From a virus: a stretch of DNA of 25,684 bases. This document shows, in pieces, positions 5,635 through 20,003 of the stretch. The notes beneath the pieces were generated by a model. That model saw only the letters and a list, made by a program, of their open reading frames with translations, was not told where the DNA came from and did no database searches. Where the stretch lies: UHGV virus genome UHGV-0106419; one strand, given 5' to 3'. Position 1 is the stretch's first letter, and the number at the start of each line of letters is the position of its first letter. Position numbers and translations under genes: made by a program.

Positions 5635-5972
5635 TTTTTATGTGAGCAGAAGATATTCATCAGAAACGATTATGTAAATCATTTTATTTTGCCAACGGCC
5701 TCATTGTCGAAAGAAAAGAATACGCCCGTATTTCCTGAATGGATTGACTTTTTTATCCAACCACACTTCAGCGCACTGCGTTTAAAAAATGCCTCATTCT
5801 TATGCGGAATATCATCATTTCATCATGATGTCTTTGATGAGCGGTGAACACAATACACTTGCGCTGTCTCTTCAGGATGAATCCCCTGGTCTGGTGCCTG
5901 TGGGCTGATGTTGCAGCAAAGCTAAGGTCGCTTAAACGCTACTCAGTATTCACTTTTCAGAGGATGAAATTT

Positions 5973-8900
5973 ATGAACAGGACCAGTCCCTATTATTGTC
6001 GCCGCTCAGTACTTTCCTTATTGATATCTGCCTTGATATATGCCCCGCCCGGGATGGCTGCCTTCACTACTAATGTTATTGGTGTGGTAAACGATGAGAC
6101 TGTAGATGGCAACCAAAAAGTGGATGAACGAGGTACAACAAATAACACTCATATTATCAACCATGGCCAGCAGAATGTTCATGGCGGGGTATCTAATGGA
6201 AGTCTTATTGAATCTGGTGGATATCAAGATATAGGAAGTCATAACAATTTTGTGGGGCAGGCTAATAATACAACCATTAACGGTGGCAGACAGTCGATTC
6301 ATGACGGGGGTATTTCCACAGGTACGACAATCGAGAGTGGCAATCAGGACGTTTATAAAGGGGGTATCAGCAATGGAACGACAATTAAGGGCGGTGCTTC
6401 ACGCGTAGAGGGAGGGAGTGCGAATGGAATACTCATTGATGGTGGTAGCCAGATAGTAAAAGTTCAAGGGCATGCTGATGGTACAACGATAAATAAGTCT
6501 GGCTCTCAGGACGTAGTACAAGGAAGTCTGGCAACGAACACAACCATAAATGGTGGTCGACAGTATGTTGAACAGAGCACAGTAGAAACAACAACCATTA
6601 AAAATGGCGGTGAGCAAAGAGTATATGAGAGCCGTGCGCTGGACACGACGATTGAAGGCGGAACTCAGTCTCTGAATAGTAAGTCAACGGCAAAAAATAC
6701 GCATATCTATTCTGGTGGCACGCAAATTGTTGATAACACCAGCACCTCGGATGTTATTGAAGTTTATTCTGGTGGCGTGCTTGATGTTAGTGGTGGTACG
6801 GCAACAAATGTTACCCAGCACGATGGTGCAATTTTAAAAACTAACACTAACGGTACGACGGTGAGCGGTACGAATAGTGAAGGTGCATTCTCCATCCACA
6901 ATCACGTGGCAGACAATGTGTTGCTGGAAAACGGTGGTCATTTAGACATAAACGCATATGGTTCGGCAAACAAGACGATTATTAAAGATAAAGGAACAAT
7001 GTCAGTTTTAACCAATGCTAAAGCTGATGCGACCCGAATAGATAATGGCGGGGTTATGGATGTTGCAGGAAACGCGACAAATACCATAATTAATGGTGGC
7101 ACACAGAATATTAATAATTATGGCATAGCCACAGGCACCAATATCAACAGCGGAACGCAAAATATCAAAAGCGGCGGGAAAGCTGACACAACAATTATAT
7201 CCTCCGGGAGCCGGCAGGTTGTTGAGAAAGATGGTACGGCAATTGGCAGCAATATTAGCGCCGGAGGCTCGCTGATTGTCTATACCGGCGGTATTGCACA
7301 TGGGGTTAACCAGGAGACGGGCAGTGCTTTAGTTGCCAACACGGGTGCAGGGACTGATATCGAAGGATACAACAAGCTCTCTCACTTCACTATTACCGGA
7401 GGGGAGGCTAATTATGTTGTGCTGGAAAATACCGGCGAACTGACGGTAGTGGCTAAAACCTCGGCGAAAAATACTACCATTGATACTGGCGGTAAGCTGA
7501 TTGTCCAGAAGGAGGCTAAAACAGATAGCACCAGACTTAATAATGGCGGCGTTCTGGAGGTTCAGGACGGTGGTGAGGCTAAGCATGTTGAGCAACAATC
7601 CGGCGGCGCATTAATTGCTTCCACGACCTCCGGAACACTTATCGAAGGAACCAACAGTTATGGTGATGCTTTCTACATCAGGAATTCAGAAGCTAAAAAT
7701 GTAGTGCTGGAAAACGCTGGCTCATTAACAGTCGTCACTGGTTCCCGCGCAGTTGACACGATTATTAATGCCAACGGCAAAATGGATGTTTATGGAAAAG
7801 ATGTTGGCACTGTACTCAATAGTGCTGGCACCCAAACAATATATGCCAGTGCCACTTCTGATAAAGCAAATATCAAAGGTGGCAAGCAAACGGTATATGG
7901 TTTAGCCACTGAAGCAAATATCGAAAGTGGTGAACAAATTGTTGATGGTGGGTCAACAGAGAAAACACACATCAATGGTGGCACGCAAACCGTTCAGAAT
8001 TATGGTAAGGCAATCAATACCGATATCGTCTCTGGCCTACAACAAATTATGGCAAACGGGACAGCGGAAGGTTCCATTATTAATGGGGGTTCACAGGTAG
8101 TTAATGAGGGCGGTCTGGCTGAAAACTCGGTGCTTAATGACGGCGGCACACTCGATGTGCGGGAGAAAGGCAGCGCAACGGGGATACAGCAGAGTAGCCA
8201 GGGCGCTTTGGTTGCAACCACCAGGGCGACGCGGGTCACAGGAACACGCGCGGATGGCGTCGCGTTCAGCATCGAGCAGGGTGCGGCGAACAATATCCTG
8301 CTGGCAAATGGCGGCGTGTTAACCGTGGAGTCAGACACCTCTTCTGACAAAACACAGGTCAATATGGGCGGACGGGAGATCGTCAAAACAAAAGCCACTG
8401 CGACAGGCACGACGCTCACCGGCGGTGAACAAATTGTCGAGGGTGTGGCGAATGAGACAACAATTAACGACGGCGGAATACAAACAGTTTCAGCTAACGG
8501 AGAGGCAATAAAAACAAAGATCAATGAAGGCGGTACGCTGACAGTCAACGATAATGGCAAAGCGACAGATATCGTCCAGAACAGCGGTGCCGCTCTCCAG
8601 ACGAGCACGGCTAACGGTATTGAAATCAGCGGTACTCACCAGTACGGTACTTTTTCCATTTCCGGCAATTTAGCGACCAATATGTTGCTGGAAAATGGCG
8701 GTAATTTATTGGTATTAGCAGGTACCGAAGCTCGCGACTCCACGGTTGGCAAGGGTGGGGCAATGCAAAACCTGGGTCAGGACTCCGCCACAAAGGTTAA
8801 CTCTGGCGGGCAATATACCCTTGGGCGGTCAAAAGATGAGTTTCAGGCTCTGGCCCGGGCAGAAGATCTCCAGGTCGCTGGCGGTACGGCAATCGTCTAC

Positions 8901-10553
8901 GCAGGTACGCTGGCGGATGCATCGGTCAGTGGCGCGACAGGAAGCCTGTCGTTAATGACGCCACGGGATAATGTTACGCCAGTTAAACTCGAAGGGGCGG
9001 TCCGGATTACCGATAGCGCGATATTGACTCTGGGAAATGGCGTCGATACCACGCTTGCCGACCTGACGGCTGCCAGCCGGGGCAGTGTCTGGCTTAACAG
9101 CAATAATTCCTGTGCAGGTACCAGCAACTGCGAATATAGAGTAAACAGTTTGCTACTCAACGACGGTGATGTTTATTTGTCAGCACAAACAGCAGCGCCT
9201 GCCACAACTAACGGTATCTACAATACGCTGACAACCAATGAACTTTCCGGTAGCGGTAATTTCTACCTGCATACCAACGTTGCAGGCTCCCGGGGCGATC
9301 AACTGGTCGTCAACAACAACGCCACTGGTAATTTTAAAATCTTTGTTCAGGATACCGGCGTCAGCCCACAGTCTGACGACGCGATGACGCTGGTGAAAAC
9401 AGGGGGAGGGGATGCTTCGTTTACGCTGGGCAATACCGGCGGTTTCGTTGATCTTGGGACCTATGAGTATGTCCTGAAAAGTGACGGCAACAGCAACTGG
9501 AACCTGACCAATGATGTCAAACCCAACCCGGACCCCATCCCAAATCCAAAGCCAGACCCAAAACCCGATCCAAAGCCAGACCCAAATCCAAAACCAGACC
9601 CTACTCCCGATCCAACGCCGACACCCGTTCCGGAGAAACGCATTACGCCTTCTACGGCAGCCGTACTCAATATGGCAGCAACATTACCGTTGGTATTTGA
9701 TGCTGAGCTAAACAGTATTCGCGAGCGGTTGAACATAATGAAAGCGAGTCCACACAACAATAATGTCTGGGGGGCGACGTATAACACCCGTAATAATGTC
9801 ACCACCGATGCGGGTGCCGGGTTTGAGCAGACGCTGACCGGAATGACAGTGGGGATCGACAGCCGTAATGATATTCCTGAAGGAATTACCACGCTAGGCG
9901 CTTTTATGGGCTATTCCCATTCACATATCGGTTTTGATCGCGGAGGACATGGCAGTGTGGGCAGTTATTCTCTGGGCGGCTATGCCAGTTGGGAACATGA
10001 AAGTGGTTTCTATCTGGACGGTGTCGTGAAGCTGAACCGTTTTAAAAGTAACGTAGCAGGTAAAATGAGCAGCGGTGGAGCCGCCAATGGCAGTTACCAC
10101 AGCAACGGGCTGGGCGGTCACATTGAAACCGGGATGCGATTTACCGATGGTAACTGGAACCTGACGCCGTATGCATCGTTAACGGGGTTCACCGCTGATA
10201 ACCCCGAATATCATTTATCCAATGGCATGAAATCGAAATCAGTCGATACCCGCAGTATATATCGTGAACTGGGCGCAACGCTGAGTTACAACATGCGTCT
10301 GGGGAACGGTATGGAAGTTGAGCCGTGGCTGAAGGCGGCTGTGCGCAAAGAATTTGTCGATGATAACCGGGTGAAAGTGAATAGTGACGGTAATTTCGTC
10401 AATTATTTGTCGGGCAGACGTGGAATATACCAGGCAGGTATTAAAGCCTCATTCAGCAGTACGTTAAGCGGGCATCTTGGGGTGGGGTATAGCCATAGTG
10501 CCGGTGTGGAATCCCCGTGGAACGCGGTAGCTGGTGTGAACTGGTCGTTCTGA
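5973..10553 (+). CDS. ypjA: AIDA-I-type adhesin-like autotransporter (1526 aa): signal peptide, repetitive passenger domain, proline-rich linker, C-terminal beta-barrel
   Basis: Start chosen at MNRTSPYY... (ATG 5973), giving 1526 aa. Signal peptide SVLSLLISALIYAPPGMAA. Degenerate ~19-residue GG-x-Q-x-V repeats across the passenger domain. C-terminus ends ...AVAGVNWSF (aromatic terminal residue). The ORF-track start at 5844 is a GTG extension. Confidence 0.85.
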   Translation: MNRTSPYYCRRSVLSLLISALIYAPPGMAAFTTNVIGVVNDETVDGNQKVDERGTTNNTHIINHGQQNVHGGVSNGSLIESGGYQDIGSHNNFVGQANNTTINGGRQSIHDGGISTGTTIESGNQDVYKGGISNGTTIKGGASRVEGGSANGILIDGGSQIVKVQGHADGTTINKSGSQDVVQGSLATNTTINGGRQYVEQSTVETTTIKNGGEQRVYESRALDTTIEGGTQSLNSKSTAKNTHIYSGGTQIVDNTSTSDVIEVYSGGVLDVSGGTATNVTQHDGAILKTNTNGTTVSGTNSEGAFSIHNHVADNVLLENGGHLDINAYGSANKTIIKDKGTMSVLTNAKADATRIDNGGVMDVAGNATNTIINGGTQNINNYGIATGTNINSGTQNIKSGGKADTTIISSGSRQVVEKDGTAIGSNISAGGSLIVYTGGIAHGVNQETGSALVANTGAGTDIEGYNKLSHFTITGGEANYVVLENTGELTVVAKTSAKNTTIDTGGKLIVQKEAKTDSTRLNNGGVLEVQDGGEAKHVEQQSGGALIASTTSGTLIEGTNSYGDAFYIRNSEAKNVVLENAGSLTVVTGSRAVDTIINANGKMDVYGKDVGTVLNSAGTQTIYASATSDKANIKGGKQTVYGLATEANIESGEQIVDGGSTEKTHINGGTQTVQNYGKAINTDIVSGLQQIMANGTAEGSIINGGSQVVNEGGLAENSVLNDGGTLDVREKGSATGIQQSSQGALVATTRATRVTGTRADGVAFSIEQGAANNILLANGGVLTVESDTSSDKTQVNMGGREIVKTKATATGTTLTGGEQIVEGVANETTINDGGIQTVSANGEAIKTKINEGGTLTVNDNGKATDIVQNSGAALQTSTANGIEISGTHQYGTFSISGNLATNMLLENGGNLLVLAGTEARDSTVGKGGAMQNLGQDSATKVNSGGQYTLGRSKDEFQALARAEDLQVAGGTAIVYAGTLADASVSGATGSLSLMTPRDNVTPVKLEGAVRITDSAILTLGNGVDTTLADLTAASRGSVWLNSNNSCAGTSNCEYRVNSLLLNDGDVYLSAQTAAPATTNGIYNTLTTNELSGSGNFYLHTNVAGSRGDQLVVNNNATGNFKIFVQDTGVSPQSDDAMTLVKTGGGDASFTLGNTGGFVDLGTYEYVLKSDGNSNWNLTNDVKPNPDPIPNPKPDPKPDPKPDPNPKPDPTPDPTPTPVPEKRITPSTAAVLNMAATLPLVFDAELNSIRERLNIMKASPHNNNVWGATYNTRNNVTTDAGAGFEQTLTGMTVGIDSRNDIPEGITTLGAFMGYSHSHIGFDRGGHGSVGSYSLGGYASWEHESGFYLDGVVKLNRFKSNVAGKMSSGGAANGSYHSNGLGGHIETGMRFTDGNWNLTPYASLTGFTADNPEYHLSNGMKSKSVDTRSIYRELGATLSYNMRLGNGMEVEPWLKAAVRKEFVDDNRVKVNSDGNFVNYLSGRRGIYQAGIKASFSSTLSGHLGVGYSHSAGVESPWNAVAGVNWSF
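9518..9635 (+). repeat. Tandem repeat block encoding the P-N/K-P-D-P linker of the autotransporter
   Basis: Two near-identical 24-bp units (TCCAAAGCCAGACCCAAA...) at about 9546 and 9570, flanked by degenerate copies; translates to PNPDPIPNPKPDPKPDPKPDPNPKPDPTPDPTPTP. Confidence 0.6.
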
Positions 10554-10590: not shown

Positions 10591-10713
10591 TTACCAGGAG
10601 CCGCGGCTCCTTTGCGTATCCTTTTATGTCTCCTCACCGTCTGGTCGGTGTTTTGCTGAGACTTCTAACTTCCTGTTTTTGTTGGTGTTGTCCTTACACC
10701 GTCCAATCATGAT

Positions 10714-10745
10714 TGGTGGGCTGGCGGGAGTTGAACCCGAGTCCG
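10714..10745 (-). other. tRNA-like 3'-end fragment (T-arm, acceptor and CCA only) resembling the 3' end of tmRNA/ssrA; putative prophage att core
   Basis: Minus strand reads CGGACTCGGGTTCAACTCCCGCCAGCCCACCA. Upstream sequence is AT-rich and not tRNA-like, so it is a partial copy. It lies between chromosomal ypjA and the prophage cargo and integrase. Confidence 0.5.
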
Positions 10746-10817
10746 TATTTTTATAATTAGCTGAAATAAAACGATTAATACTAACCATTTTATTCTGCGG
10801 ATCTTTTGCGGCTCCTT

Positions 10818-11717
10818 TTATGTCTGGATGTGGTCGTCAACACATCCTCTTTTAAATACAGGCGCTTTTACCTTAGTTGGATCATCTGTTTTAAAGATTT
10901 TCAATCGTTCACTGAAGAACATTACCTCAGATCCTTTGTACCGATCTTGAGCACTGTAGTTTATTCCATATACTAATGATGATGTCTTATACATAGCTTG
11001 GATCTCAGGAGTGTTATCGTAAGAAACAATCCAAGGTGTTTTAATATTATTCTGTACGACTTTTGCAACCCTAACATGATCATCATGATTATAATGGTTG
11101 ATATATAAACCTTTACCTTTTATGTAATAAGGTGGATCCAAATATGTTAATGAGTTTTGTGGCAATTGAATAACTATTTTTTTAATGAAATCAATTGCAT
11201 CCATGTTATATAAATCTATTCTGTGACGATTTTCTGATATTTTATGGATTCGAGAAATCAAATCACTCTTATTATAGCGAGCGTCAAGCTTCCATTTCCC
11301 TTCTTGATTTTTACCGCCAATTACTCCACCTTTTAATATTCCAGAACGATTTGTTCTATTGAGAAAAAAGGTTGAGAAACCAATTGTTAAAAGATCATGG
11401 TCTTTAGGATTATTAATTATATCTTTCTGCCTAAACCATTCATCCATTGTAACTTCAGTTCTTTCAATTAAAGAACATAATTGATCTGCATGATTTAATA
11501 CACTGTGCCAAAAAGCATAAACAGAAATATTAATATCATTAAGGATGATTTTTTCAGCTGCATTTAGATGTAACAGTTTCAATGCTAAACCAGCACCCCC
11601 AGCATATGGTTCGGCATAATGTATAGGCGAAAGATTATTTTCTTCAATAAGCCGAAGCATGAAATTTGCAAGCTTGCCTTTACCGCCAGGATAGCGAAGT
11701 GGGGTGTTAAAACGCAT
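10818..11717 (-). CDS. D12-class (Dam-family) N6-adenine DNA methyltransferase, 299 aa
   Basis: Motif I YAEPYAGGAG near the N-terminus and motif IV DPPYY at about residue 185, the alpha-class order. AGAGG RBS 7 nt upstream of the ATG. Confidence 0.8.
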   Translation of the reverse strand: MRFNTPLRYPGGKGKLANFMLRLIEENNLSPIHYAEPYAGGAGLALKLLHLNAAEKIILNDINISVYAFWHSVLNHADQLCSLIERTEVTMDEWFRQKDIINNPKDHDLLTIGFSTFFLNRTNRSGILKGGVIGGKNQEGKWKLDARYNKSDLISRIHKISENRHRIDLYNMDAIDFIKKIVIQLPQNSLTYLDPPYYIKGKGLYINHYNHDDHVRVAKVVQNNIKTPWIVSYDNTPEIQAMYKTSSLVYGINYSAQDRYKGSEVMFFSERLKIFKTDDPTKVKAPVFKRGCVDDHIQT

Positions 11718-11750
11718 ATGATACCTCTAAATGTCAGATCTAAAGTATAT

Positions 11751-11790
11751 CAAAAAAAGGGCTTTGTGGCCATCACATAAAGCCCTTTTT
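11751..11790 (-). terminator. Hairpin (AAAGGGCTTT...AAAGCCCTTT) with flanking T/A runs between the ATPase and MTase genes
   Basis: 10-bp stem read directly; U-run on both strands. Lies 7 nt downstream of the ATPase stop. Confidence 0.5.
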
Positions 11791-11796
11791 AATCAA

Positions 11797-13581
11797 TTAG
11801 TTATCTGACAGATATGATGAGATGGTAGCAGAATCGACACCATGTCCACTTGTCATAATAACTTTAAGACTCTTTATTAGTTCATTCTTGAAGCTATCCG
11901 ATTGCACAGGATTTTTCTCGACCCAATATCGATATGGGTTATCTTTAACTCGCCCTTTTACTTGGGCCTGAAATTGAGTCGTATGTGCAAAATCTTTAAA
12001 CAGTTTTCTAACTATCCCGCCATGGTTTTTGTTAACTTTTTTATAATTATCTATAAGGATTTTTAAATCAATCGGAGCGTTACCAATCTTTAGCGTTGCA
12101 ATTATGTCTTTAGCTGTTTTCATAAAAACAGCTTTTGTAAATTTATTTTTATTTTCCCAATATGCATCATCAGGTGGTAAATTATATAAAAACTCAAAAA
12201 TCATTTGGTCTGGAGGTAAGGTGCTTGGAAGCAAACATAAGTTTTTTTCTTTTTTGGCTTTTTTTGCATTAGCACTATTGTCGTGAACAACATCACCGTC
12301 TAAGACGATCAAGCTTTTAGCTGTAAATTCTGGTATTTTTCTTGCCATTAAGTCAAGCATGGCAGAGCAGCTAATATTTATATTCCCTAATGGATTTAAT
12401 ATTTTATTTATTTTTCGATCTGTTATCAATTGTTTGAAAAAGTCGAAACCTTCTTTGTCTTCAAAATATACATTTGCCTTTGGAAGACAAATGTCATCAT
12501 TAATTTTTACAGTTTCAACATGTAAATCAGCGTGGATATCTGTCCATGAAAGATTATTCTTTGTTTTAATATCTCCATATGTGTCTGTAAGATATATTGT
12601 TTTAAAGCTATCACTATCTTGTTTTGAACGATTATAGATATCCTCTATTATTAATGGAGAGTGCGAGGTCATGATTATTTGCAGATCGTATTGTTTTGCT
12701 GCTTTAGTTAGAATATTAATTAGCTCTAACTGTGCAGCAGGGAAAAGACCTGCATCGGCTTCATCAATTAACAATATTCCGCCATGATAATCAGAATAAG
12801 TTTCCTTCAATCTTTTAAATGAAAAAATTGCTTGGATTAATTGTCCAACATTATCTTCACCAACAGATACTGATTGGTGATCATAATTGTCACCATGGAC
12901 AACCATTGAATCGATAGTACCTTTTGTTGCTGTTACTGAGCTTCCATTGTTTTTTAGTAAGAGTTGGTTACTCATCATTCTAATTTCATCAGAATTTTCA
13001 TTGATGTACTGAACATCCCGTGTTGAGTAATCAGTCCTTAATGTAATAGGAAGAAGTCGTGCTAAGCTTAAAAAAATAACAGGATGAGTAACGTTTCTAC
13101 TTTGGTTTTTTTCCGGTATTGAATCATTTCCCCTGACTACAGGCCTTGATTTATCTCTGTCACTGTAGCTGTATAAACCTAATGTTAGTTTTTCAAGATG
13201 TTTGTTCGATGCACCATCATAGACACTAATTTTGACGTCCATTGAACCAGGAACATCAAATTGTTCTGAAAGCCTAAAATGTTCGCTGAAAGCTGACTTG
13301 AAGCTGCCATTTGTTAATGTTTTATATTGTGTTAAATCAGTCTCAGGGTTTTTGGTAAAGTCCTTTGTAAAGCTAAATATTTGGGCGATAATGCCAAGAA
13401 TTGTGGATTTAGATGTGCCATTTTTACCACAAATAACAGTTAGGCGAGAACCAAACTCGATGTTTATATTTTTCAGTCCGCGAAACTTCACAACATTTAT
13501 ATTTTTTAGTTTGGTAATTTGATTTGCCATGTTTCTATCTTGCTCCGTAAAATGGCCACAAATTGTGGCCAATAGTTTCAT
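11797..13581 (-). CDS. ABC-type ATPase with C-terminal TOPRIM-like domain (OLD-family-like nuclease); candidate defence/abortive-infection protein
   Basis: Walker A GKNGTSKST, Walker B ILLIDEADAG, H-loop MTSHSP. C-terminal YFEDKEGFDFF and IVLDGDV about 55 aa apart resemble the TOPRIM Glu and DxD motifs. An alternative start at 13530 (MANQ...) gives 577 aa. The first ATG is only 8 nt past the integrase stop. Confidence 0.65.
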   Translation of the reverse strand: MKLLATICGHFTEQDRNMANQITKLKNINVVKFRGLKNINIEFGSRLTVICGKNGTSKSTILGIIAQIFSFTKDFTKNPETDLTQYKTLTNGSFKSAFSEHFRLSEQFDVPGSMDVKISVYDGASNKHLEKLTLGLYSYSDRDKSRPVVRGNDSIPEKNQSRNVTHPVIFLSLARLLPITLRTDYSTRDVQYINENSDEIRMMSNQLLLKNNGSSVTATKGTIDSMVVHGDNYDHQSVSVGEDNVGQLIQAIFSFKRLKETYSDYHGGILLIDEADAGLFPAAQLELINILTKAAKQYDLQIIMTSHSPLIIEDIYNRSKQDSDSFKTIYLTDTYGDIKTKNNLSWTDIHADLHVETVKINDDICLPKANVYFEDKEGFDFFKQLITDRKINKILNPLGNINISCSAMLDLMARKIPEFTAKSLIVLDGDVVHDNSANAKKAKKEKNLCLLPSTLPPDQMIFEFLYNLPPDDAYWENKNKFTKAVFMKTAKDIIATLKIGNAPIDLKILIDNYKKVNKNHGGIVRKLFKDFAHTTQFQAQVKGRVKDNPYRYWVEKNPVQSDSFKNELIKSLKVIMTSGHGVDSATISSYLSDN

Positions 13582-13588
13582 GCTTGGA

Positions 13589-14755
13589 TTATATTGTTAT
13601 CTTCTTCAAGCTTGTTTGTCCATCATATTCCTTCAGATATGAGCCATAGTGCCTGAAAAGCATCTCAGGCCCTTTATGCCCCATTTGAGCTGCAAGCCAA
13701 AACAGGTTTGCTCCCCGGCTGATATGTCTGGTGGCGAATGTATGCCTGGTTTGATATGGGTTTCTGTAACGAATACCTGCTTTTCGCAATGTTGGCACCC
13801 ATGCTTTTTTCCTAATTGCATCAGCACTTGCCCAGGGTTTATTGGTCTTTGGATCTTCAAAGACAGTAGCATCCTTCATGAATGTAAATGGCTTCTGGTT
13901 TATCAACGCCAACATTGCTTCTTCAGTCAGTTCAACTTTACGGGTACCGGCTTTTGTCTTTGTTCCTTTGATAACTCCGACAACACTTGCGCTCTGAACA
14001 TGGGCTGTTTTTCCAACAAAGTCGATATCATGCCATCGTAGGGCACATAATTCAGAACTACGCAGGCCTGTATGTATGGCGAACCGGAACAGATTTTCCC
14101 ATTGTTTGTTTCCGGCTGCTGCTAGTAATGCATCAACTTCTGCTGGTGATAGCGGATCAACCACATAGCTGCTTTCTGCTTCTGACTTATCACTTTGGTA
14201 GCGCGAAGCAGTTACCAACGATACGGGGTTAATTTGAAGTACCCCATCGGTTACGGCTTCATCAAGTGCTGACCGCAGGAAAGATAACTGGTTGCGAATT
14301 GTTTTTAAGGTCGTTTTCTGGCTTTGAATCCACGCTTTCAGGATTGCTGGTGTTAATTCACTTGCAGGGCAAATGTGGAGTGAGGCTAACGCACTACGGC
14401 ATTTTTTATAACCACCAATCGTAGATGGTGAAAGTTTTCTCGTTTCGCAGATTTCAAGGTATTCGTCCAGGTACATTTTTACCGTTTTGCCTGCAGCAGC
14501 ATTACCAAAAATTTTCAAACGAGCAGAACGGGGAAAATATTCCGCATAAATGAATGTTCCCCTTTCGATCTTATTATGAATTTCGCCGAGTGTGCGCTCG
14601 GCGTATTTAATGTTCTTTGGTGTTACTTCCAGATTGGAAAGAGGCTCACGACATTTAACGCCTTTGTAGGTGAAAGTTATATTGATCGTTTCGCCCTGGC
14701 GGTGTTTCCTGATTGTTACGCCGCGCGGTAGTTTGAGCAGTTTTGTCTGGCCCAT
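13589..14755 (-). CDS. Phage integrase (tyrosine recombinase), 388 aa
   Basis: C-terminal catalytic region ...RHTFATRHISRGANLFWLAAQMGHKGPEMLFRHYGSY (R/H/Y residues) and N-terminal arm-binding-type domain. Overlaps the upstream xis-like ORF by 40 nt. Confidence 0.85.
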   Translation of the reverse strand: MGQTKLLKLPRGVTIRKHRQGETINITFTYKGVKCREPLSNLEVTPKNIKYAERTLGEIHNKIERGTFIYAEYFPRSARLKIFGNAAAGKTVKMYLDEYLEICETRKLSPSTIGGYKKCRSALASLHICPASELTPAILKAWIQSQKTTLKTIRNQLSFLRSALDEAVTDGVLQINPVSLVTASRYQSDKSEAESSYVVDPLSPAEVDALLAAAGNKQWENLFRFAIHTGLRSSELCALRWHDIDFVGKTAHVQSASVVGVIKGTKTKAGTRKVELTEEAMLALINQKPFTFMKDATVFEDPKTNKPWASADAIRKKAWVPTLRKAGIRYRNPYQTRHTFATRHISRGANLFWLAAQMGHKGPEMLFRHYGSYLKEYDGQTSLKKITI

Positions 14756-19170: not shown

Positions 19171-20003
19171 ACAGTTTAACGGCAAATAACCGTTTGTCGC
19201 AACAGCTGGTGGTCAGTGTCGCTGAACACCTGTTGTTACGGCATGAATGCAGATTACCAAATCTCCTGGCTGTAAGTAACCACAGAGAACTTTACCTGAC
19301 TGTGGGGGGCGAGTTGTGCAGGAACTTAACCGCTGGTTTCGTGACGGAAGAGGACTTTATGTTCATGTTATTCGTTGGGAGCCAGAAACACAGCGCGTTA
19401 TCTATCTTCGCAAAGACTACCCGCATGAGTGCTTTAGTCCTTTGTGGAAATTCAGGCGTGATTTTGTTGAGTGTGAAGGACCACCAGCACATTGATTCTG
19501 CCATTCCGGGACGTTACACTGTTCAGGCACCTTATAAAGCGGGTGCCGGGATTGGCGTCCTGGAATTGATCAAGGCGATATATGACGCGCCAGCGTCTTT
19601 TTTATCGTCCGCATTTGCTCACATCAAAGTTATGGTGGGCTGGGCGGGGGCATCGAAAGATGCGCCGGTTTCCTTGATCACCGGTTACGCCAACCCCGTT
19701 CAGTTCACCACCAGCGAAATTGGCGTTTCCGGTGGTGGAAGTATTTCACCGATCAAGGAGGCTGCCATCATGGCTACTGTCCCAGCCCTCACTCGTCTGA
19801 ATGATGAAGACTTACATAAACTCAGTTATGTAACAACTGCACTACGTGCTCTGCGCAAGGTAACTCTTTCGGATCCGCAGGCACATCAGGTTCTGGTAGA
19901 AACCCTTCTTAACTTGCAAGCTGAACGTATTCGTCTGGCGGATAAGGCTAATTTTCATATTCACCGTCTCCTGAATATCAGCGGAGGGCATCGTCATGCT
20001 TAA
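19167..20003 (+). CDS. Hypothetical phage protein (278 aa) in the replication module
   Basis: ATGA start/stop overlap with the upstream gene; no motif recognised. Confidence 0.5.
   Translation: MNSLTANNRLSQQLVVSVAEHLLLRHECRLPNLLAVSNHRELYLTVGGELCRNLTAGFVTEEDFMFMLFVGSQKHSALSIFAKTTRMSALVLCGNSGVILLSVKDHQHIDSAIPGRYTVQAPYKAGAGIGVLELIKAIYDAPASFLSSAFAHIKVMVGWAGASKDAPVSLITGYANPVQFTTSEIGVSGGGSISPIKEAAIMATVPALTRLNDEDLHKLSYVTTALRALRKVTLSDPQAHQVLVETLLNLQAERIRLADKANFHIHRLLNISGGHRHA

Follow-up and report, generated by a model that had tools for sequence, protein, structure and literature searches.

A prophage-encoded OLD-like ABC ATPase and its D12 DNA methyltransferase partner: a relative of the PD-lambda-5 defence system with an exchanged effector

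Introduction

The defence system PD-lambda-5 pairs a ParB/HEPN protein with a methyltransferase and was obtained from ECOR7 by selecting for lambda resistance. Nine of the ten phages tested were affected by it, its cloning required an mrr-deleted host, and it was labelled by its discoverers a compacted prophage RM+Abi (restriction-modification plus abortive infection) system (Vassallo et al. 2022, PMC9519451). The published classes of the OLD family comprise stand-alone proteins (Class 1, P2 Old and Ts OLD), Gabija (Class 2, GajA), retron effectors (Class 3) and PARIS (Class 4, AriA with AriB); a class linked to a methyltransferase is not among them. A further protein in which an ABC ATPase and a Toprim domain are fused, HEC-04, defends alone, and its E319A/D375A/D377A mutant loses defence (Payne et al. 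2024, 10.1101/2024.01.29.577857). The present study deals with a gene pair of the UHGV virus genome UHGV-0106419, a stretch of 25,684 nucleotides called the window in the following. The pair encodes an OLD-like ABC ATPase and a D12 DNA methyltransferase. In a lambdoid (ymf/e14-like) Escherichia coli prophage it forms the cargo of a variable slot that is bounded by int and the prophage end. Within the pair the ATPase stands in the place of the ParB/HEPN effector PD-Lambda-5_A, the pair being a relative of PD-lambda-5 with a swapped effector.

An obligate pair of genes

The genes follow each other on the minus strand in the order integrase, ATPase and methylase:

13589-14755, minus strand: prophage integrase of the tyrosine type (Pfam Arm-DNA-bind_2 and Phage_integrase)
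11797-13530, minus strand: OLD-like ABC ATPase gene, 577 amino acids from the RefSeq start (Pfam, family alignment, AlphaFold model)
10818-11717, minus strand: D12 DNA methyltransferase gene, 299 amino acids, alpha-class, PD-Lambda-5_B family (Pfam, PADLOC)

An earlier interpretation made from the letters of the window (the sequence-only reading) had described the two genes as prophage cargo at the integrase end, and this description holds, both open reading frames being found on the minus strand. For the comparison with other species, 80 loci were collected by an ATPase-motif scan with one genome per species, and methylase homologues were detected by tblastn with the methylase of the window. 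With 101 confirmed relatives among 185,579 species genomes, the ATPase family is rare but broad; the loci span Gamma-, Beta-, Alpha- and Deltaproteobacteria, Bacteroidota, Mycobacteria, Listeria and Acidobacteria.

A methylase homologue (38-89% identity) is present at 78 of the 80 loci, while the contigs of the remaining two end right after the ATPase gene. None of the 78 complete loci harbors the ATPase without a methylase. At 73 of them the methylase gene is located directly downstream of the ATPase gene on the same strand, and in about two thirds of the 43 adjacent same-strand loci that were measured, the ATPase stop codon and the methylase ATG are separated by only 2-3 nucleotides. The pairwise identities of the two proteins are correlated (Spearman 0.81; 75 loci, 2775 pairs). 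Both genes are intact at 74 loci and both are broken at two (L002, L080); at one locus (L073) a broken ATPase gene is accompanied by an intact methylase gene. Clustering of the neighboring open reading frames of the 80 loci revealed neither a universal third gene nor a conserved helicase partner, only SNF2, type III mod/res and RhuM genes that are lineage-specific. Because the methylase is present in all complete loci across phyla, lies 2-3 nucleotides from the ATPase gene in most and has diverged in step with it, it is an obligate partner. The sequence-only reading had left undecided whether the methylase is an independent orphan or a partner of the ATPase; the 78 complete loci speak for the partner and against the orphan. 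ATPase and methylase very probably constitute one conserved functional module.

Within the window, two signals lie between the genes:

11752-11790, minus strand: intrinsic-terminator-like hairpin, 15-bp stem followed by U7 (free energy -26.1 kcal/mol, z -4.4)
11744-11772, minus strand: promoter-like site TGGCCA, 17 nucleotides, TG-TATACT (extended -10), from a consensus scan; it overlaps the hairpin

The hairpin that the sequence-only reading had noticed as a terminator is real, since none of 200 shuffles folded equally well. The number of promoter-like sites in the region did not exceed the shuffle expectation in the consensus scan, which is a pattern match only. Together, the promoter-like site and the hairpin could allow an expression of the methylase that is independent of int and the ATPase gene, which would suit a modification enzyme.

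These signals would also fit two modules that are neighbors only as cargo, namely a stand-alone OLD-like defence gene of the Class 1 or HEC-04 type and an orphan phage methylase shielding phage DNA from host restriction. HEC-04, likewise a fused ATPase-Toprim protein, does defend alone, and orphan D12 methylases are common in prophages. Nevertheless, this explanation is very improbable, as the conservation of the pair essentially excludes independent functions: the pairing extends over all complete loci and phyla, mostly at a distance of 2-3 nucleotides and with divergence in step, adjacency survives rearrangements, and the hairpin with its promoter-like site is limited to the enterobacterial lineage, most other loci having just the 2-3 nucleotides between the genes.

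One methylase family with different effectors

Homologues of the methylase were also found together with other partner proteins:

L085, Pseudomonas phage OQ658368: genuine PD-Lambda-5_A (4e-90)
L088, E. coli 2014C-3599: genuine PD-Lambda-5_A (4e-74)
L089, P2-like prophage of E. coli 3359: genuine PD-Lambda-5_A (5e-168)
L084, Vibrio phage ValB1MD-2: more distant ABC ATPase
L083, Streptococcus phage Javan645: more distant ABC ATPase
L086, Vibrio prophage (Vibrio phage 10N.286.54.E5_PE002), 4866-8428: protein of 459 amino acids
L087, e14-like prophage of E. coli GF131 at icd: divergent member of the ATPase family of the window (hhalign 1.5e-48)

The methylases paired with PD-Lambda-5_A are 53% (L088) and 51% (L089) identical to that of the window, and those of L085, L088 and L089 nest inside the tree of the ATPase-paired methylases. 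For the 459-amino-acid protein of L086, no Pfam or PADLOC match was obtained. Its gene is convergent with the methylase gene, and genes for a P-loop NTPase and a HerA-like helicase follow; these genes may be one more set of effectors served by this methylase family.

Four of the five rearranged loci are three-gene clusters which contain the ATPase, a genuine PD-Lambda-5_A (ParB/HEPN) and a single methylase:

L010, 6001-10559: three-gene cluster, PD-Lambda-5_A match 8e-97
L078, 5986-10028: three-gene cluster, PD-Lambda-5_A match 7e-136
L035, 2996-7671: three-gene cluster, PD-Lambda-5_A match 3e-130
L003, 3231-7689: three-gene cluster, A protein 68% identical to that of L089

This composition suggests two effectors that share one modification enzyme.

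Domain structure of the ATPase

The open reading frame of the ATPase extends to position 13581 (594 amino acids). The RefSeq start at 13530, which is used in near-identical E. coli loci, yields 577 amino acids (WP_001603287.1), and the N-termini of homologues align at this methionine in an alignment of 24. Residue numbers refer to the 577-amino-acid protein, the parts of which are as follows:

12556-13530, minus strand: ABC ATPase head, residues 1-325
13405-13428, minus strand: Walker A GKNGTSKS, residues 35-42
12841-12867, minus strand: signature-like SVGEDNVGQ, residues 222-230
12754-12774, minus strand: Walker B LLIDEAD, residues 253-259
12655-12669, minus strand: H-loop, residues 288-292
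12196-12498, minus strand: Toprim-like core, residues ~345-445, with the putative metal-binding residues E357/D358 and D411xD413
within 12451-12468, minus strand: E357/D358 (Glu motif YFEDKE)
within 12289-12303, minus strand: D411xD413
12205-12219, minus strand: invariant LPPDQ motif, residues 438-442, at the end of the Toprim-like core just before the helical domain
11800-12195, minus strand: all-helical C-terminal domain, residues 446-577, about 130 amino acids (alignments, model)

The head of the protein is that of an OLD-family member, with Walker A, Walker B, signature and H-loop in an N-terminal ABC ATPase, so that the complete ABC core described in the sequence-only reading was found again. 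All Pfam matches are of the ABC type (AAA_15 3.8e-15, AAA_21 4.1e-12, AAA_23). Partial PADLOC/NCBIfam matches of 45-70 bits to PtuA, AriA, GajA, NsnB and HEC-04 are restricted to the nucleotide-binding motifs. In alignments of 24 and 38 homologues the ABC motifs are invariant. The AlphaFold model of the whole protein has a predicted local distance difference test score (pLDDT) of 85.

The C-terminal half probably contains a divergent Toprim domain. A Glu motif and a DxD motif at the distance typical of Toprim nucleases had been pointed out before, and indeed E357 and the DxD (D411, D413), which lie at a distance of 54 residues, do not vary in either alignment; support from fold and profile comparisons is weak. 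Modelled alone, residues 331-577 gave a pLDDT of 93 and a predicted template modelling score (pTM) of 0.89. The model starts with a first beta strand ending in E357/D358, followed by a helix, the second strand, a helix, the third strand ending in D411xD413, a helix and the fourth strand, before the chain enters the all-helical domain. The order of these elements is that of Toprim domains, but a Foldseek search of the isolated model against the PDB gave no significant fold match (best E 0.29), Ts OLD having the top probability (0.28). The Pfam profiles Toprim, OLD-like Toprim and DUF4435 matched none of 38 family members (E <= 1) and none of ten more distant relatives. When the profile of the C-terminal domain was set against the AbiLii/RloB protein of L092, no significant similarity resulted (E 0.67). 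When isolated C-terminal domains were compared with PADLOC, five of nine, all from homologues, matched HEC-04 alone (profile positions 313-406, E 1e-5 to 7e-3), whereas that of the window had no PADLOC match. By their offsets in these weak matches, E357, D411 and D413 would fall at about the profile positions of the HEC-04 residues E319, D375 and D377.

The invariant residues of the helical domain include W458, R508, F511, K512, P532 and W536. More distant relatives of 500-545 amino acids share the Toprim-like core only and not this domain. For the C-terminal domain, 195 cluster representatives among 1.84 billion were retrieved at E <= 1e-3.

Properties of the methyltransferase

The methylase matches Pfam MethyltransfD12 (2.2e-19, residues 9-249), in agreement with its earlier assignment. 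Its motif I and DPPY motif are located as follows:

11589-11612, minus strand: motif I EPYAGGAG, residues 36-43
11127-11138, minus strand: DPPY, residues 194-197

Since motif I precedes DPPY, the enzyme has the alpha-class order. PADLOC assigned residues 1-282 to positions 1-283 of the 291 positions of PD-Lambda-5_B (PDLC04018, 5.1e-124), and MTase_II was matched with 3.7e-107. The designation as a Dam-family alpha-class adenine methyltransferase in the sequence-only reading is thus correct for the alpha-class D12 assignment, but the Dam label reaches no further than the D12 class, and the modified base may be adenine or cytosine. Against the Dam model NCBIfam TIGR00571 the methylase scored 54.1 bits, below the cut-off of 114.85, and the sole match in a PDB search (E <= 0.01) was 7M6B (1e-16), while E. 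coli Dam, T4 Dam and DpnM were not found. A GATC Dam paralogue was rejected on these grounds. The structure 7M6B is M.CbeI, an alpha-class N4-cytosine methyltransferase, and as this is the nearest solved relative, the term adenine is an annotation and not a result.

Conservation of the methylase is even over the full length of the protein and does not drop between motif I and DPPY. A hypervariable recognition region is absent, which argues for one fixed specificity. The enzyme may be listed as M.Eco1886ORF14565P, which the locus-tag numbering of JJ1886 suggests as a more likely name than M.EcoMIV of EC958; identity with the latter could not be established.

Comparison with described systems

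The likeness to PD-lambda-5 is based on the methylase, which belongs over its full length to the same family as the B component of that system, on the organization as a two-gene module in a prophage hotspot and on the four loci in which both effector types surround one methylase. What separates the two systems is the effector, a 577-amino-acid ABC ATPase with a Toprim-like domain in the window and a ParB/HEPN protein of about 460-500 amino acids in PD-lambda-5. Among the top 25 PADLOC matches of the ATPase there is no PD-Lambda-5_A model, while genuine A proteins score 4e-74 to 5e-168, and PD-lambda-5 proper was rejected for this reason.

With the OLD family the window protein has in common an ABC head of the OLD/PtuA/AriA type and its carriage by a phage. 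Unlike members of this family, its C-terminal half has no Pfam or NCBIfam match to OLD or Toprim and contains the additional helical domain of about 130 amino acids, and, unlike in Classes 1-4, its obligate partner is a methyltransferase. Assignment to the stand-alone Class 1 conflicts with the methylase partner at all complete loci. For Gabija, the neighbors (int and the methylase gene) do not include a GajB UvrD-like helicase and the GajA match is confined to the ATPase motifs. A retron effector (Class 3) was rejected because no reverse transcriptase gene is adjacent and Rfam finds no retron RNA. According to the open reading frames of the window and the RefSeq context, neither a helicase nor a reverse transcriptase gene adjoins the pair, which bears out the previous statement that it is neither canonical Gabija nor a retron effector. 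PARIS (Class 4) has a separate AriB Toprim gene, which is missing here, the Toprim-like domain being fused to the ATPase. Septu was rejected as well, since the PtuA match covers the ATPase motifs only and the partner gene is absent. In PADLOC, the matches to PtuA, AriA and GajA amount to 50-70 bits. WonAB and PA1939/PA2735 were considered and are unrelated.

HEC-04 resembles the ATPase in the fusion of ABC ATPase and Toprim-like domains and is the only PADLOC model that matched isolated C-terminal domains of homologues. However, HEC-04 is a single gene of about 494 amino acids within type I restriction loci for which no methylase partner has been described. The match of the whole window protein to the HEC-04 model is only partial (57.7 bits, E 2e-16) and points to a distinct family; this and the obligate methylase argue against membership.

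As in type II restriction-modification, a solitary alpha-class methyltransferase stands beside a putative nuclease which never occurs without it, and the methylase may be expressed separately. On the other hand, the protein that would be the nuclease here is large, ATP-dependent and OLD-like and is not of the PD-(D/E)xK, HNH or GIY-YIG type; it matches no known restriction enzyme family. PrrC-EcoprrI and RloC share with the pair the genetic linkage of an ABC ATPase effector to a DNA modification enzyme, and an RM+Abi logic could apply here too, but those effectors are anticodon nucleases on a complete type I system, whereas here a Toprim-like effector is linked to nothing more than a small type II-like methylase.

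PADLOC 2.0.0 contains no model specific to the ATPase family of the window. Full-text searches of the literature yielded no description or published name of the pair, though an earlier mention may exist. The sequence-only reading had likewise recognized no named system; this is true of the pair, while the methylase half already bears the name PD-Lambda-5_B.

Possible mode of action

With a slight preference over other explanations taken together, the pair can be regarded as a methylation-gated, ATP-dependent anti-phage system that resembles restriction-modification in its mechanism. The methylase would mark host and prophage DNA at a fixed short motif, and the ATPase, acting as a nuclease, would form an ATP-dependent dimer that clamps DNA in the manner of other ABC/OLD proteins, and would cut or nick DNA that does not carry the mark. 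In favor of this view are the obligate linkage of the two genes, the membership of the methylase in the PD-Lambda-5_B family, the exchange of effectors around this methylase family and the defence genes in the surroundings. A catalytic potential of the ATPase is suggested by the invariance of its ABC motifs, E357 and D411xD413. The lack of a hypervariable recognition region, which fits a fixed specificity of the methylase, is in line with such a restriction-like function.

Several points weigh against this interpretation. At L058 (7712-8601, complete genome of Diaphorobacter aerolatus KACC 16536) an intact ATPase gene is located beside a methylase gene that appears frameshifted near the N-terminus, a combination that would be lethal under a strict restriction-modification logic unless it reflects a sequencing error. 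In the ATPase, no domain was identified that would read methylation or a DNA sequence. The characterized OLD-type systems, namely P2 Old, Gabija, PARIS, retron effectors and HEC-04, respond to phage proteins or the infection state and not to missing methylation. Moreover, the product of the methylase may be N6-methyladenine (m6A) or N4-methylcytosine (m4C), the nearest solved relative M.CbeI acting on N4 of cytosine.

The main rival explanation is a guard or abortive-infection model, in which the ATPase-Toprim protein would be a latent suicide effector that is restrained by the methylase or monitors it and fires when a phage anti-restriction factor, for instance a DNA mimic, disables the methylase. 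PrrC as a guard of EcoprrI and PARIS as a sensor of Ocr work by the same logic. All characterized OLD-type ABC ATPase systems are infection sensors or abortive-infection effectors, and PD-lambda-5 itself has been interpreted as RM+Abi (Vassallo et al., PMC9519451). At the four three-gene loci, restriction could fall to PD-Lambda-5_A, with the ATPase as a back-up, and at about 20 loci the pair lies within a type III restriction island, a position in which back-up effectors are known. Nonetheless, 74 of the 78 loci contain no other restriction gene in the module, so that the guarded methylase would be a solitary enzyme with no defence role of its own, and a dependence on modification would account equally well for the spacing of 2-3 nucleotides and for the lack of loci with the ATPase alone. 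The guard model is considered rather unlikely, but the three-gene loci and the behavior of other OLD-type systems keep it in contention.

If the restriction-like interpretation of the pair is pursued further, the ATPase would represent an unclassified class of OLD-type nucleases gated by the methylation of a dedicated D12 methyltransferase, that is, a minimal ATP-dependent, Toprim-based restriction-modification system. The methylase would then be a common platform for alternative effectors, alone or in combination, namely the OLD-like ATPase-Toprim, PD-Lambda-5_A with its ParB/HEPN domains and the 459-amino-acid protein. This wider proposal is tentative and may well not hold in full. Should the ATPase-Toprim read methylation, it would join two large fields that have been studied apart, the OLD/ABC-ATPase defence systems, which up to now have been seen as sensing and aborting infection, and restriction-modification with its epigenetic distinction of self and non-self. 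The OLD scheme would gain a class defined by a methyltransferase partner, and PD-lambda-5, the mode of action of which is still undescribed, would become mechanistically accessible, with its methylase shown to be a reusable module. The need for an mrr-deleted host in the PD-lambda-5 work suggests that methylases of the PD-Lambda-5_B family may create Mrr-sensitive DNA. In E. coli, the pair could affect the host range in phage therapy and DNA uptake.

Defence genes in the surroundings of the pair

The integrase gene occurs at >=90% identity in 412 complete E. coli genomes, about 85 of which contain the pair. These roughly 85 carriers, out of 5426 complete E. coli genomes in all, include ST131 strains such as JJ1886. 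In int-bearing genomes without the pair, similarity ends within the last 15-55 nucleotides of int, at about 13589-13644 of the window, and is followed by different cargo: AbiLi and AbiLii in O103:H2 CEC12044 (4e-101, 5e-29), three genes of no assigned function in ATCC 11775, one of which encodes a STAS-like domain, and a single 259-amino-acid gene of no assigned function in strain p4A. The site that extends from int to the prophage end is a hotspot with variable cargo, defence genes included. The unassigned genes of ATCC 11775 and p4A at this slot are candidate defence genes.

In about 20 loci of other phyla (L031, L036, L039, L044, L053 and about 15 more), the pair is located between an SNF2 helicase gene and type III genes. 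The order of these islands is SNF2 helicase, ATPase and methylase, type III Mod, an optional RhuM and type III Res, for example in L053 (3083-13650), and the pair appears to be embedded there in a type III restriction-modification locus.

These surroundings bear on the question of whether the pair is antiviral at all. Restriction-modification pairs can act as addiction modules, and it is conceivable that the pair stabilizes a mobile element by post-segregational killing or that it is a methyl-directed DNA-processing pair similar to the strand-discriminating nickase MutH; its constant association with mobile elements or islands and the lack of an ATPase without a methylase are in line with this. 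A primarily non-antiviral function is quite improbable, however, in view of the AbiL genes in the allelic slot of sister prophages, the position of the pair in restriction islands and a methylase family belonging to a system that was selected directly for phage resistance. Besides, addiction and defence can coexist.

The prophage context

The G+C content is 0.30-0.37 across 11000-13500 and 0.42-0.55 on both flanks, and such a low value fits the expectation for acquired cargo. The left neighbor of the pair is a YpjA/EhaD autotransporter gene; to the right lie the lambdoid early genes ymfK, ymfT, ymfL, rusA and the Q antiterminator gene. The conserved start of the ATPase gene is 58 nucleotides past the int stop codon (13589) and not eight, as had been assumed in the sequence-only reading, and the spacer contains one further feature:

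13553-13571, no strand: perfect 8+8 palindrome TGGCCACAAtttGTGGCCA

Because of this distance and the palindrome in between, the co-transcription with int that had been thought probable is not established. The same 9-mer as in the palindrome TGGCCACAAtttGTGGCCA recurs at 11764-11772 in the loop region of the intergenic hairpin. The palindrome is a candidate for an operator or a weak terminator, and on the basis of this repetition the two sites could be a shared operator; the frequency of the 9-mer in the window, counting matches with at most one mismatch, was not above chance.

Left of the methylase gene, a 215-nucleotide stretch (10602-10817) with several terminator-like hairpins also accompanies the element in JJ1886 (99% identity), where the chromosomal surroundings are different. 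As this stretch moves with the element, the prophage end (attL) must be at or left of about 10602. In JJ1886 the same prophage end directly abuts glaH, without the autotransporter island. In the window, a tRNA gene with a CAT anticodon (2862-2937), called Met by ARAGORN and tRNA-Ile in the matching RefSeq record, stands upstream of the 1569-amino-acid YpjA/EhaD-type autotransporter gene (5844-10553). On the other side of the pair, Rfam detected isrK (64 bits) and a C4 antisense RNA (82 bits) next to each other at 19527-19715, an arrangement resembling a P1/P7-type ant-immunity region within a lambdoid prophage.

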